DNA of 13,348 bases from an uncultured bacterium. GTDB taxonomy: Bacteria; Zixibacteria; MSB-5A5; JAABVY01; JAHJOQ01. The notes under the pieces were generated by a model. It saw only the letters and a list, made by a program, of their open reading frames with translations, made no database searches and was not told where the DNA came from. The DNA lies in NCBI GenBank assembly GCA_965369655.1, contig CBDUQR010000059.1, positions 1-13,348 on the forward strand, given 5' to 3'. Both the position numbers and the translations under genes were made by a program. Shown here in pieces: positions 5,762-12,842 of the stretch. Positions within the stretch are counted from its first letter, which is position 1; every line of letters starts with the position of its first letter.

Positions 5762-6808
5762 ATGGAAGGAATAGTGGGCTATGGCGCCAAGGTTCCCAGA
5801 CATCGAATCAAGGTCGAGGAGATCGCCAAGGTCTGGGGAGCAGATGCGCCGTCCTATAAGAGAGGACTCGAACTGACCGAAAAGTCCGTGCCTGCCCCCG
5901 ATGTCGATTGCATCACGCTGTCGGTCGAGGCTGCGAAATATGCGATAACACGCGCGGGAATCGACGCCGTCGATATCGGTTCGGTCTACGTCGGATCAGA
6001 ATCGCATCCGTATGCAGTGAAACCATCCGGTACCGTGCTCGCAGAAGCAATCGGTGCTGTCAATGACTGCCACTGCGCCGACTACGAATTCGCATGTAAG
6101 GCTGGCTCAGAGGCGATGTTCGTTTGTCTCGGTCTGGTCAAGTCTGGTTATATCAAGTATGGCCTGGCTGTCGGTGCGGATACGAGTCAGGGTGCACCGG
6201 GCGACGCGCTCGAATATTCTGCTGCGGCAGGAGCGGCGGCGTTTGTGATGGGCACCGAAAACGTGCTTGCCGAATGTCACCACACTCATTCGTTCATGTC
6301 TGACACGCCCGATTTCTGGCGCAGAGAGCATGAGCATTATCCACAGCATGGCGGAAGATTCACCGGCGAACCTGCATACTTCAGGACGATCACCGGCGCA
6401 TCGAAGGCGATTCTCGAAAAATCAGGTATGAAACCGTCAGATTTTCAGTACGCCGTATTCCATCAGCCGAACGGCAAATTTCCGCTGCGTGTCGGCAAAA
6501 GGCTCGGTTTCACGAAGGAACAGATCGACACGGGACGGCTGGTGCCGTATCTCGGCAATACATATTCAGGATCATCGCCGATGGGACTGACCGCGATTCT
6601 CGATGTCGCGAAACCGGGTGATATGATCTTCATGTGCTCGTATGGTTCCGGAGCCGGAGCCGATGCGTTCATCTGGAAAGTTACTGATCGTATCAACGAG
6701 GTGCGCGACATGGCTCCGAAGACTCGCGTGCAACTCGATGAGCACAAGGTCTACATCGACTACGGAACGTACGCTAAGTTCCGTAAGAAAATCCTGAAGA
6801 ACAAGTGA
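5762..6808 (+). CDS. mvaS: Hydroxymethylglutaryl-CoA synthase, archaeal type
   Basis: 348 aa. Motifs GIVGYGAx[14 protein letters not shown] (Glu80), EFACKAG (Cys112), [28 protein letters not shown] (His234), GNTYSG and SYGSGAG, so the catalytic triad is intact. GAGG RBS upstream. Confidence 0.93.
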
Positions 6809-6821
6809 TGAGGTAAAGAAT

Positions 6822-7979
6822 ATGAGAGAAGTTGCCATAATAGGCGTCGGCATGAATCAGTGGGGAGAGCTGTGGGATAAGTCTCTCCGCGATGTCTATG
6901 TTGAGTCTGCGCTCGAGGCGATCAAAGATGCAGGCGTCGATACAGTCGACGGGATGTATGTCGGCGCAATGGCGCCGGGCCTGTTTGTAGGTCAGGAGCA
7001 TCTCGGATCGTTGCTCGCGGATTATCTCGGCATTAAGAATCTGCCCTGCGCGCGGGTCGAATCGGCGTGCGCATCCGGAGGCGTTGCGATTAAGTCTGCG
7101 TTTCTGGAGATTGCATCGGGGCATTCGGATATCGTGATTGCCGGCGGCGTTGAGAAGATGACTGACTGCTCCGGCGATGACGCTACGTACGCACTGGCTA
7201 CCGCCGCAGATCAGGAATACGAAGTGTTTCATGGCGCGACATTCCCCGGTCTGTATGCGATGATGGCACGTCGCCACATGCATGAGTTCGGGACAACGCA
7301 GGAACAACTCGCGCATGTCGCAGTCAAGAATCACAAGAACGGCGCGAAGAATCCGAAAGCTCAGTATCCGTTCGAGGTCACGCTCGATGGCGTCATGAAT
7401 TCGGTCATGATCGCCGACCCGTTGCACATACTCGATTGCTCGCCGATCACCGATGGCGCGGCGTGCGTGGTGATGGCTGATCTCGAAACTGCGAAAAGAA
7501 TCTGCAAGAAGCCGATTGTGAAAGTGCTCGGTTTCGGTCATGCAACAGATGCGATTGCTCTGCATTCGCGCAAGTCGCTGACGCAGCTCGACGCCACGAT
7601 TGTGGCAGCCGAGCGCGCATACAAGATGACAGGAAAGAAGCCTGAAGATATCGATTTTGCTGAGGTGCACGACTGTTTCACGATTGCTGAGATAATAGTT
7701 ATCGAGGACCTCGGGTTTTTCGAGAAGGGCAAAGGTGGCACTGGCGCAGAGTCGGGCGAGACGTACATCGGTGGCAGGATTCCAATCAATCCTTCCGGTG
7801 GACTAAAATCAAAAGGCCATCCGGTCGGTGCAACGGGCGTCGCACAGGCTATTGAAGTGACAACGCAACTTCGCGGTGATTCCGGTGATCGGCAGATCGA
7901 AGGTGCGAAAGTTGGTCTGGCTCAAAATATGGGCGGTTCGGGCGGCTCGGCCGTCGTTCACATTATGGAGGTACTCTGA
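6822..7979 (+). CDS. Acetyl-CoA acetyltransferase (thiolase), archaeal/SCP2-thiolase type
   Basis: 385 aa with VESACASG (Cys83), [38 protein letters not shown] and NMGGSG. GAGG RBS upstream. Confidence 0.93.
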
Positions 7980-8392
7980 TGTTTCCGGCAAGAACATGGA
8001 GAGAATATCCGCAGAGATACAGGCTCGAAGCGGTCAAATGTACGAAGGACAATACGGTCTACTTTCCTCCGAGGCTGGTGAGACCCGGCACGCTTGAGAC
8101 CGATTGTTTTGAGCCATATACGCTTCCCGACGAGGGAACGATATACACGTTTACTGTGATCGAAGTGCCGCCGAACCAGTTCAAGGACGAGGCACCGTAC
8201 GTTGTGGCGATCATCGAACTCGTAGACGGGACCAAGATCACCTGCCAGGTGGCTGACTGTGATCCGAAAAAACTTGAGATCGGACAGAAGGTGAAAATGG
8301 AGTTCCGGCGCATACAGACGCACGAGGAGCATGGCGTGCTGTCGTATGGCTACAAGGCCGTCCCGGCCATCAAGGGTGTGACGACGGTATAA
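7979..8392 (+). CDS. DUF35-family (ribbon + OB-fold) scaffold protein of the thiolase/HMG-CoA synthase complex
   Basis: 137 aa with [37 protein letters not shown] and YGYK. Its start overlaps the thiolase stop (TGATG). Confidence 0.92.
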
Positions 8393-8396
8393 TCAG

Positions 8397-10799: not shown

Positions 10800-10810
10800 T
10801 ACTGTCCTGA

Positions 10811-12328
10811 ATGAAACAGACATTTGACAAGATACTGATAGCGAACAGGGGCGAGATAGCCTGTCGGATTATTCACGCCTGCCGCGAGCTTGGTGTGCTC
10901 TCTGCCGTCGTTTATTCCGAGGCTGACACCAGGGCACTCCATGTCCTGATGGCGGATGAGGCCGTATGTATTGGTCCACCGCCCCCGCTCGAAAGCTATC
11001 TGGCTATGGATAAGATCATCGCAGCGGCGAAAGAGATCGGCTGCGACGCTATTCATCCCGGCTACGGTTTCCTTGCTGAGAATCATCGGTTCGCTCAACT
11101 CTGCGCTGATGAAGAGTTGGTATTCATCGGGTCGCATCCCGATTCGATCCGTGTGATGGGTAACAAGGTCGAGGCGCGCCAGATGATGATTGATGCCGGA
11201 GTTCCTGTCATACCTGGAATGCAGGCATCCTCAGTCGATGTCTCCCTATTCGAGAAGGAAGCAGACAAAGTCGGATATCCTGTTCTGTTGAAAGCTGCTG
11301 CCGGAGGTGGCGGCAAGGGGATGCGGGTTGTCGACAAGCCTGATGATCTCGGTGATGCGCTCGAAGGTGCACAGAGAGAGGCTAAGTCTGCTTTCGGCGA
11401 TGACTCCGTGTATCTCGAAAAGTTCATCGAGAGTCCACGTCATATCGAATTCCAGGTCTTTGGCGATCATCACGGAAACGCTATTCATCTGTTCGAGAGA
11501 GAATGCTCGATTCAGAGAAGGCATCAGAAGATAATCGAAGAGACACCCTCAGTTGCGCTGACTCCGGAGATTCGCAGCCGAATGGGTGATGCGGCAGTAA
11601 AGGTTGTACAGGCGTGCAAGTACTCGAATGCAGGAACAGTCGAGTTCCTGTTGGACAAGAGCGGTGACTTCTATTTCCTCGAAATGAACACGCGCATTCA
11701 GGTCGAGCACCCGATTACCGAGATGGTGGTCGGAGTCGATCTGGTCGTGGAGCAGATAAGGGTTGCTGCCGGGCAGGAACTTTCGTTCAAGCAGGAATCG
11801 TTAGCGCAGACCGGACACGCCATCGAGTGCAGGATTTACGCCGAGGATGCAGCTAATAATTTCCTTCCTGCGGCAGGCAGGATCGAATACTTGAAAGAAC
11901 CGACCGGCCCGGGAGTTCGCGTCGATAGCGGCATTTACTCGGGCGACGAGGTTTCGGTCTTCTACGACCCGATTCTCTCGAAACTGATCGTCTGGGGGCC
12001 GGATCGTGAATCCGCGCGGAAGCGAATGATCAAGGCGCTTTCGGAGTATGTAATTCTCGGTGTGACAACTCAGACAGACTATTTGCGCGACGTCCTCAAG
12101 CATGATGAATTCATTCAGGGTCGCACCTACACCGATTTTATTCCGACTCACATGCCCGACTGGAAGCCTGCTGATCCCGGTGACGATGAATTGCATCTCA
12201 TCCTCGCGGGCGCGGCGTTTGCCGATCAGCTTTCACCTAAGTCTGTCGTTGTCTCCGGTAATGGAGAAGCAGTGATGCCGACGCCGTGGCAGACTATCGG
12301 CAAGTGGGAAATTGGCGCGGGATCATAA
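10811..12328 (+). CDS. Biotin carboxylase subunit (AccC family; N-terminal part of a split methylcrotonyl-CoA carboxylase alpha, LiuD-like)
   Basis: 505 aa with KILIANRGEIA, IHPGYGFLAEN, KAAAGGGGKGMR, ERECSIQRRHQK, FLEMNTRIQVEHP and RIYAED. It has no biotin-attachment domain and ends with a PTPW..W motif. Confidence 0.93.
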   Translation: MKQTFDKILIANRGEIACRIIHACRELGVLSAVVYSEADTRALHVLMADEAVCIGPPPPLESYLAMDKIIAAAKEIGCDAIHPGYGFLAENHRFAQLCADEELVFIGSHPDSIRVMGNKVEARQMMIDAGVPVIPGMQASSVDVSLFEKEADKVGYPVLLKAAAGGGGKGMRVVDKPDDLGDALEGAQREAKSAFGDDSVYLEKFIESPRHIEFQVFGDHHGNAIHLFERECSIQRRHQKIIEETPSVALTPEIRSRMGDAAVKVVQACKYSNAGTVEFLLDKSGDFYFLEMNTRIQVEHPITEMVVGVDLVVEQIRVAAGQELSFKQESLAQTGHAIECRIYAEDAANNFLPAAGRIEYLKEPTGPGVRVDSGIYSGDEVSVFYDPILSKLIVWGPDRESARKRMIKALSEYVILGVTTQTDYLRDVLKHDEFIQGRTYTDFIPTHMPDWKPADPGDDELHLILAGAAFADQLSPKSVVVSGNGEAVMPTPWQTIGKWEIGAGS

Positions 12329-12329
12329 G

Positions 12330-12842
12330 ATGAACTACGAATATCGATTTGGCGGCGAGGAGTATTCGGTTTCGGTTGACAAAGCCGAAGAGGGATACAA
12401 AGTCACTGTAGGTGATACTTCGTTCCCACTCAAGGTCACGCGAATTGACTCCAACACATATCTACTGACTTCTGACAATGGCTCAAAACGCCTGCTCCAC
12501 ATCGCACACACCGACGGCAAAGTTTATCTCCAGATGGACGGTCGGGTGCATGTTCTCGAAGATGTGCTTGCGGATGAGGATTCCGGCGGTGGCGCTGCAG
12601 CAAGCGATATCGTCGATGGTGTGCAGAAAGTGATCGCGCCAATGCCCGGCAAGCTTGTTAAGGTAACCGTATCCGAGGGCGAGAAGGTCACCAAGGGGAT
12701 GACAGTCTGCATCGTCGAGGCTATGAAGATGGAGAATGTCGTGCAGGCCAGGCTCGACGGTGTAGTGAAGAACATCGCTTTTGAGCCGGGCGACCTCGTC
12801 GATACCGACAAACCAATCCTCGAAGTTGTATCAGAAGACTGA
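12330..12842 (+). CDS. Biotin carboxyl carrier protein with an N-terminal beta-rich (BT-like) region
   Basis: APMPGK..V..G..V and the biotinylation motif EAMKMEN. The ATG at 12330 lies 1 nt after the previous stop and is preferred over the overlapping TTG at 12312. Confidence 0.92.
   Translation: MNYEYRFGGEEYSVSVDKAEEGYKVTVGDTSFPLKVTRIDSNTYLLTSDNGSKRLLHIAHTDGKVYLQMDGRVHVLEDVLADEDSGGGAAASDIVDGVQKVIAPMPGKLVKVTVSEGEKVTKGMTVCIVEAMKMENVVQARLDGVVKNIAFEPGDLVDTDKPILEVVSED

Follow-up and report, generated by a model that had tools for sequence, protein, structure and literature searches.

We analysed a 13,348-nt stretch of DNA (hereafter, the window) from contig C59 in the genome of an uncultured sediment bacterium of the Zixibacteria, an assembly of 2.99 Mb in 100 contigs that is 99.5% complete (contigs, genomes and loci are designated below by C, G and L numbers of our own). 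The window carries an operon of seven genes in which a predicted archaeal-type set for the formation of 3-hydroxy-3-methylglutaryl-CoA (HMG-CoA) precedes the genes for a predicted 3-methylcrotonyl-CoA carboxylase (MCC) and a LiuC-like hydratase. All seven genes lie on the + strand between positions 5762 and 12842, with intergenic gaps of 13, -1, 4, 9, 11 and 1 nt when the last gene starts at the ATG at 12330, and the listing of open reading frames agrees in this with an initial annotation of the same DNA. That annotation had also pointed out the lack of an HMG-CoA lyase. We found none in the window, which contains no acyl-CoA dehydrogenase either, and none genome-wide, where the only HMGL-like match was an oxaloacetate-decarboxylase/pyruvate-carboxylase-B-like protein. 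The role of this operon in the turnover of HMG-CoA is the subject of the present work.

The first three genes encode an archaeal-type HMG-CoA synthase (HMGCS; 5762-6808, 348 aa), an archaeal/SCP2-type acetoacetyl-CoA thiolase (6822-7979, 385 aa) and a DUF35 OB-fold protein (7979-8392, 137 aa), a putative scaffold whose start codon shares 1 nt with the stop codon of the thiolase gene. The HMGCS clearly exceeded the equivalog cut-off of TIGR00748 (525.4 bits for a cut-off of 353.35) and the cut-off of NF003274 (537 for 244). The thiolase exceeded that of NF004720 (554 for 420) and also matched NF053570 with 561 bits, under its cut-off of 600, and the DUF35 protein matched PF01796 with 74.6 bits. 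In searches of the PDB, the best solved match of each protein was a chain of 6ESQ (6ESQ_I, 450 bits; 6ESQ_A, 405 bits; and 6ESQ_E, 107 bits, respectively). The residues used as catalytic markers of these enzymes, namely the E-C-H-N tetrad of HMGCS and the CxS, HDxF and GH motifs of the thiolase (PMC12960953), are all in place: E80/C112/H234/N266 of the HMGCS are present here and invariant in 59/59 operon homologues, and C83, H283, D284, F286, G332 and H333 of the thiolase are invariant in 63/63 homologues, with S85 found in 62/63. The DUF35 protein has diverged more, since the CxxC...CxxC zinc-ribbon cysteines have been lost here and in the two closest relatives shown (L006 and L008), whereas they are kept in the archaeal 6ESQ_E and in the other lineages shown (L015, L017, L036, L059 and L069). 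The three cysteine-less sequences belong to genomes with HMG-CoA reductase (HMGR) and without a Dxr match (this genome, G002 and G004). By homology to 6ESQ, the three proteins may plausibly be assigned to a thiolase/HMGCS/DUF35 complex, with a predicted scaffold role for DUF35, whose zinc ribbon is degenerate here. As DUF35-thiolase aldolases exist (PMC12329534), we also considered that the thiolase/DUF35 pair might cleave HMG-CoA in the manner of an Ltp2-like retro-aldolase. This candidate was set aside as the leading idea: the Cys, HDxF and GH are kept in 63/63 homologues and an intact HMGCS is always found alongside.

Downstream of this trio lies the gene for the MCC beta subunit, or carboxyltransferase (CT; 8397-10004, 535 aa), which scored 747 bits with 3U9R_B, the MCC beta of Pseudomonas aeruginosa, and 727 bits with its human counterpart. 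The score was 481 bits with 5IKL_B, a geranyl-CoA carboxylase beta, and did not exceed 292 bits with the chains of other families (propionyl-CoA carboxylase, PCC, and others). A separate PCC beta paralogue is encoded on contig C30 of the same genome. The CT resembles MCC beta more than it does the carboxyltransferases for geranyl-, propionyl- or acetyl-CoA, and it is predicted to be active on 3-methylcrotonyl-CoA. The following gene (10014-10799, 261 aa) encodes a LiuC-like enoyl-CoA hydratase (ECH), probably a 3-methylglutaconyl-CoA hydratase, which matched ECH_1 with 219 bits. Its best NCBIfam matches were under cut-off (PRK07468, 274 bits; gamma-carboxygeranoyl-CoA hydratase, 247 bits) and its scores with the solved LiuC and AtuE were 117-127 bits; it is 43-46% identical to the ECH encoded beside CT in four canonical acidobacterial liu clusters, in three of which that gene sits between CT and the biotin carboxylase (BC). 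The MCC alpha subunit is split into two genes, a division also seen in related loci. The first part is the BC (10811-12328, 505 aa), with the domains Biotin_carb_N, CPSase_L_D2 and Biotin_carb_C and a TIGR00514 score of 629.5 bits for a cut-off of 626.5. The second (12312/12330-12842, 170 aa) combines a BT-domain remnant, matching BT_MCC_alpha with 26.7 bits (under the cut-off of 31), and the biotin carboxyl carrier protein (BCCP; Biotin_lipoyl, 65.5 bits), with the biotinylation motif EAMKM and a biotinyl-Lys invariant in 63/63 homologues. Pfam, NCBIfam and PDB matches therefore agree with the identities first proposed for the seven genes: an archaeal-type trio followed by an MCC beta, a LiuC-like hydratase and a split MCC alpha.

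We used the CT to scan one genome per species, which yielded 80 loci in 80 species genomes (74-96% identical), and scored the neighbours at these loci by tblastn with the seven window proteins. According to the labels of their records, some of which are clearly loose, the loci belong to Zixibacteria, Eisenbacteria, Aminicenantes/Acidobacteriota, Caldithrix, Coatesbacteria and others. HMGCS, thiolase and DUF35 occurred in this order upstream of CT in 52 of the 54 loci with >3.2 kb of upstream DNA, the exceptions being L020 (HMGCS not found) and L061 (all three not found). Downstream, CT was followed by ECH, BC and BCCP in 54 of the 58 loci with >4.2 kb of DNA on that side, except for L017 (without ECH), L048 and L061 (without any of them) and L057 (without BCCP). 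All seven genes were present in all 43 loci evaluable on both sides and keeping both halves. The operon adjacency is a conserved unit, beyond chance, with the same order in dozens of species from several phyla, so that the idea that the two halves might not be syntenic in relatives, which the initial annotation had offered as a way to refute its proposal, fails. In the copy at L017, from a Caldithrix sp. (G008), BC directly follows CT.

The distribution of the trio and of the lyase beside MCC could be compared in Acidobacteriota. We probed 201 genomes of this group with the CT; 108 had a match at E <= 1e-120 and 67 a match at >=54% identity, of which 66 were kept (G074 was left out). An archaeal HMGCS was found in 17 of these 66 MCC-beta-bearing genomes, in 14 of them at <=5 kb from MCC beta. 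The lyase family exceeded its cut-off in 45/66 genomes, that is, in 39/49 without HMGCS versus 6/17 with HMGCS (Fisher p = 0.0017, kinship ignored), and matches of at least 300 bits were seen in 34/49 of the former versus 0/17 of the latter (p = 2e-7, also ignoring kinship). The lyase was located <=10 kb from MCC beta in 26 genomes and the trio was near it in 14, but both were in none (Fisher p = 4e-4, again with kinship ignored). Three of four canonical acidobacterial clusters have the layout CT-ECH-BC(-BCCP) with the lyase just downstream, and the fourth shows CT and ECH only. Because the trio and the lyase are never both beside MCC and the canonical clusters share the CT-ECH-BC layout, the trio takes the functional slot of the lyase.

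We counted genes of HMG-CoA and isoprenoid metabolism in 50 of the 80 operon genomes, picked for their full or nearly full operons (51 with the genome studied here). The lyase family NF004283 was over cut-off in only one of the 51, the Caldithrix genome G008, which also has HMGR and in which the lyase-like gene lies between a gene of the isocitrate/isopropylmalate-dehydrogenase family and a family-III CoA-transferase. HMGR (PF00368) was found in 9 of the 50 other operon genomes, with 7 strong and 2 weak (47-53 bits) matches, and had no match in the remaining 41; two complete chromosomes, those of G023 (Aminicenantes, 4.07 Mb) and G039 (Zixibacteria, 2.72 Mb), are among the genomes without it. 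Most carriers have neither an HMGR nor a lyase match, and the operon HMGCS is the only HMG-CoA-handling enzyme that they encode. Dxr was detected in 39 of the 43 operon genomes without a strong HMGR match. Since 41/50 carriers have no HMGR match and most have Dxr, the supply of mevalonate is not the general role of the operon. The initial annotation had put forward two models, a de novo route from acetyl-CoA to 3-methylcrotonyl-CoA and a hub feeding acetyl-CoA and leucine carbon into HMG-CoA for mevalonate, and neither of them explains, as a general account, why the operon is kept in those 41 genomes.

The genome studied here does possess a mevalonate pathway. A cluster on contig C41 encodes an HMGR-mevalonate kinase fusion together with diphosphomevalonate decarboxylase, a second GHMP kinase and a type 2 isopentenyl diphosphate isomerase, with no HMGCS or thiolase in the cluster. 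The fusion (locus L002, 8896-11265) is a single 789-aa frame with 365 bits to the class II HMGR TIGR00532 and 210 bits to the mevalonate kinase TIGR00549; in G001-G004, G008 and G038, the HMGR match likewise lies within a frame of 757-803 aa. The operon HMGCS is the sole HMGCS of the genome, and neither it nor its relatives G002, G003, G004 and G038, all four with HMGR, gave a match for Dxr, IspG or IspH. As mevalonate is the only isoprenoid route found and the operon provides the only HMGCS, the operon complex must also work forwards or pass leucine-derived HMG-CoA to HMGR. The expectation that mevalonate genes without a lyase would favour the hub was thus borne out in this organism, and the conversion of acetyl-CoA and leucine carbon via HMG-CoA into mevalonate fits this genome.

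The genomic surroundings provided clues about the direction in which the operon might operate. In L059 and L042, it is flanked by genes for a 3-hydroxyacyl-CoA dehydrogenase, a thiolase, two acyl-CoA dehydrogenases and a crotonase, and in L042 and L015 by a PCC-like set and methylmalonyl-CoA mutase, with a Glu/Leu/Phe/Val dehydrogenase also present in L059 and L015. In our genome, contig C77 encodes thiolase II, HCDH, two acyl-CoA dehydrogenases and IlvE. It is collinear with the DNA that follows the operon in L006, its first three genes being 75-81% identical to genes located ~3.5 kb downstream of the L006 operon, and it probably continues the operon locus beyond the IS630-family element at the end of our contig. 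The operon contains no isovaleryl-CoA dehydrogenase LiuA; the two acyl-CoA dehydrogenases encoded beside IlvE on C77 are Bcd/SCAD-like. The genome also encodes electron transfer flavoprotein (ETF) and ETF:quinone oxidoreductase, and gave four 2-oxoacid:ferredoxin oxidoreductase matches; the E1 component of the branched-chain 2-oxoacid dehydrogenase was not found in it. A search for family-I CoA-transferases (PF01144) gave no match in this genome or in G039, whose chromosome is complete, hence no AibA/B and no SCOT/AtoDA. Searches of this genome for LeuA, CimA, IlvD and IlvN were negative as well and, therefore, leucine would be imported. Among the 51 operon genomes, a LeuA-sized DRE-TIM protein occurs in only three (G030, G046 and G047) and IlvC exceeds its cut-off in 27. 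On contig C45 of our genome (L089, 7328-8311), a solitary gene for the ketol-acid reductoisomerase IlvC (306 bits) lies beside pyrE. We down-weighted the idea that IlvC without LeuA would indicate another way to leucine, since IlvD and IlvN were also not found and a lone IlvC is no sign of valine/isoleucine prototrophy. The use of isovalerate as a fermentative electron sink from acetyl-CoA was dropped by reasoning, as few electrons would be sunk per acetyl-CoA spent.

In the textbook view, HMG-CoA lyase ends leucine catabolism and HMG-CoA synthase is a one-way biosynthetic enzyme. We propose a different arrangement for the carriers of this operon. MCC (beta plus split alpha) would carboxylate 3-methylcrotonyl-CoA derived from leucine or isovalerate at the expense of ATP, and the LiuC-like hydratase would convert the resulting 3-methylglutaconyl-CoA into HMG-CoA. 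With no lyase at hand, the trio would interconvert HMG-CoA and acetyl-CoA and, when reversed, turn HMG-CoA and 2 CoA into 3 acetyl-CoA, with acetoacetyl-CoA channelled between the enzymes. All carbon would stay thioester-bound, whereas the lyase route loses one thioester as free acetoacetate, and acetoacetate would need no re-activation, which might spare an energy-limited anaerobe approximately one ATP per leucine. In the clade of our genome, the complex would in addition run forwards, or pass on leucine-derived HMG-CoA, to HMGR, making HMG-CoA a two-way node. Published accounts, PMC12960953 among them, describe the thiolase reaction in qualitative terms as endergonic and that of HMGCS as exergonic. 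The sum of the two would be near equilibrium. The catabolic direction is favoured because the ATP-grasp BC is conserved, the flanks in relatives are catabolic and the trio occupies the lyase slot, and we infer the flux direction together with complex formation, substrate specificity and the energetic gain. On these grounds, we consider a lyase-free degradation of leucine and isovalerate with the trio reversed, and also running forwards for isoprenoids in this clade, as probable, if not strongly so. The initial annotation stands in its gene calls, in the operon, in the lack of a lyase and in the hub for this particular genome, but it had not considered the reversed trio as the step that cleaves HMG-CoA. 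A literature search that had subscription journals and supplements outside its scope returned no published account of an MCC-trio operon or of a reversed HMGCS in leucine catabolism.

Several points weigh against such a degradation pathway. To our knowledge, a physiological reversal of HMGCS has never been shown. The hydratase falls below every curated equivalog cut-off. The acyl-CoA dehydrogenases of C77 are Bcd/SCAD-like, with 353 bits to 5OL2_C versus 246-262 bits to isovaleryl-CoA dehydrogenase, and Bcd-type enzymes are often reductive; moreover, ETF:quinone oxidoreductase was found in just one of five genomes checked. The rarity of LeuA fits leucine auxotrophy and, equally, a biosynthetic direction. 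Regarding the lyase, 6 of the 17 HMGCS-bearing Acidobacteriota have a lyase-family match over cut-off (252-289 bits, unlinked to the operon) and so does G008, where the match is also low-scoring and unlinked, so that some operon genomes may have a lyase after all. Finally, the Fisher tests ignore the relatedness between genomes, and most of the genomes are metagenome-assembled, which makes the absence of a gene weaker evidence than in finished genomes.

The explanation that survives best besides this one is that the trio is never reversed and that both HMG-CoA-forming routes are pooled for mevalonate and isoprenoid synthesis. The genome studied here fits it well, having a mevalonate cluster without HMGCS, the operon copy as its sole HMGCS, no lyase found and, like its four relatives, no Dxr, IspG or IspH found. 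There are also precedents for leucine carbon entering sterols in Trypanosoma brucei (PMC5993337) and for a single metabolite fed by HMGCS and the Liu pathway in caprazamycin biosynthesis (PMC9636800). However, such pooling is at odds with the retention of the operon in the 41 genomes without an HMGR match. In addition, the isoprenoid demand is small compared with an amino-acid catabolic flux, so that leucine-derived HMG-CoA would pile up without an outlet, and the ETF:quinone oxidoreductase and the beta-oxidation set encoded here suggest that there is a real catabolic flux. We thus regard pooling alone as unlikely.

A broader possibility is a fully reversible, all-thioester bridge (3 acetyl-CoA <-> HMG-CoA <-> 3-methylglutaconyl-CoA <-> 3-methylcrotonyl-CoA + CO2), along which ATP would be spent or regained at the biotin step. 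It could serve energy-starved sediment bacteria to burn leucine with a gain of one ATP, the mevalonate-only clade to make isoprenoid precursors and, in the opposite direction, the many operon genomes in which LeuA was not found to form isovaleryl-CoA or leucine de novo. HMG-CoA synthase would then join citrate synthase as a supposedly one-way synthase run backwards in nature. We view so versatile a pathway as quite doubtful.

The de novo route of the initial annotation would lead from acetyl-CoA through HMG-CoA and 3-methylglutaconyl-CoA to 3-methylcrotonyl-CoA, a step in which MCC would decarboxylate and yield ATP, and from there to isovaleryl-CoA for iso-fatty-acid primers or, by reductive carboxylation, to leucine; such a route would parallel the myxobacterial Aib pathway but depend on biotin. 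Synthesis is the known direction of the trio, but here the trio stands in for the catabolic lyase position by position. Biotin carboxylase reactions are near equilibrium, yet a decarboxylase needs no ATP-grasp subunit and the BC is conserved in the operon; likewise, myxobacteria evolved AibA/B despite having MCC. The neighbouring acyl-CoA dehydrogenases are Bcd-like and 2-oxoacid:ferredoxin oxidoreductases, a reversible class of enzymes, are present, which speaks for this route, whereas the flanks in relatives are those of isoleucine, valine and propionate catabolism. Similarly, the scarcity of LeuA-sized proteins in genomes that often have IlvC would make sense if leucine were produced in this way, but IlvD and IlvN were also not found here, which points to a general branched-chain auxotroph rather than to one for leucine alone, and the Aminicenantes G046 and G047 have the operon together with LeuA-sized genes on the IlvC contig, G046 having a full ilv-leu cluster annotated. 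The conserved ATP-dependent BC, the catabolic flanks and the trio in the lyase slot thus disfavour de novo synthesis, which we deem improbable. It is very improbable that the two halves are functionally unrelated or that the carboxylase serves another acyl-CoA such as geranyl-CoA or propionyl-CoA, the adjacency being a transcriptional convenience, because, although the hydratase misses all equivalog cut-offs and substrate specificity is not certain from sequence, the halves stay adjacent in 52/54 and 54/58 evaluable loci of several phyla, the CT prefers MCC beta (747 bits) over geranyl-CoA carboxylase beta (481) and other families including PCC (<=292), and the genome has a separate PCC beta on C30.

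As for the regions around the operon, a sigma-70-like promoter candidate (5590-5618, + strand) is located ~145 nt before the first gene, with TTGACA and TAATAT separated by a 17-nt spacer and 10/12 matches with TG. Transcription from one promoter had been claimed from the outset; this single site is compatible with it, but the region shows no excess of promoter-like sites (3 seen versus 6.3 expected by chance after shuffling), so that the claim is weakly supported. The terminator-like sites in the operon (7 seen versus 6.5 by chance) were uninformative. On the downstream side, an IS630-family transposase fragment (13086-13346, - strand) matches DDE_3 with 44 bits and NF033545 with 56 bits, covering positions 226-294 of the 299 of the latter profile, and runs off the contig end. 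It is the convergent insertion sequence already recognised in the initial annotation as a boundary, and not an operon member. Upstream, a 66-aa stop-to-stop frame (5309-5509, - strand) that starts with MAELTQ may correspond to the divergent pseudogene of the same annotation; it has a GAGxS-like motif resembling the N-terminus of SIR2-family proteins. Further upstream, a gene at 2144-5146 (+ strand), placed in a stretch of lower GC content (~43% versus ~53% elsewhere), encodes a 1000-aa protein with a bacterial Ig-like domain, FG-GAP repeats, thrombospondin type 3 repeats and a C-terminal dockerin, in keeping with other dockerin-tagged secreted proteins of this genome.

If the proposed degradation with a reversed trio is true, the leucine pathway would gain an undescribed, thioester-conserving ending in which the lyase is replaced by a synthase complex across several phyla, and the estimates of ATP yield for protein degraders in anoxic sediments could change. 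The presence of HMGCS in most of these genomes is no indicator of isoprenoid synthesis, which would affect the annotation of 'mevalonate pathways' in bacterial metagenomes. The genome studied here would, for its part, make both directions of one complex comparable in a single organism.

The closest known relative of the trio is the archaeal thiolase/HMGCS/DUF35 complex, reportedly described by Vogeli et al. in PNAS in 2018. Both share the three adjacent genes, the 6ESQ chains being the best solved matches of our proteins, and the intact catalytic residues; the archaeal complex supplies the mevalonate pathway, as the one encoded here plausibly does too. In contrast, the bacterial trio forms one operon with MCC and the hydratase, occurs mostly in genomes without an HMGR match, has lost the DUF35 zinc-ribbon cysteines in this clade and, according to our proposal, would mainly work in the opposite direction. 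The second half of the operon recalls the leucine/isovalerate utilisation cluster of Pseudomonas, liuRABCDE. The liuB-liuC-liuD order, also found in the canonical acidobacterial clusters, and the MCC beta family are the same, but here liuE is missing from both operon and genome, liuA is missing from the operon, separate genes for BC and BT+BCCP stand for liuD, and the trio takes the place of the lyase. In the anaerobic isovalerate cluster of Desulfococcus multivorans, Mcc and EchA2 are accompanied by the lyase HmgL (PMC5109826).

Two other systems offer more distant parallels. The myxobacterial Aib pathway to isovaleryl-CoA, composed of MvaS, LiuC, AibA/B (a CoA-transferase-like decarboxylase) and AibC, also ties an HMG-CoA synthase to a methylglutaconyl-CoA hydratase/dehydratase and to the pool of branched C5 acyl-CoA. 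It differs from the operon described here, which is characterised by an ATP-dependent BC, an archaeal-type HMGCS with thiolase and DUF35 and, in relatives, catabolic flanks, and whose genome yielded no PF01144 member. The second parallel, a conceptual one, is the reversed citrate synthase of the reversed oxidative tricarboxylic acid cycle, for which reversal has been shown experimentally. In both cases, a Claisen-type synthase thought to be irreversible would run backwards and keep a thioester where a lyase would otherwise act; nevertheless, the enzyme family and the pathway are different, and the reversal of HMGCS is a proposal.

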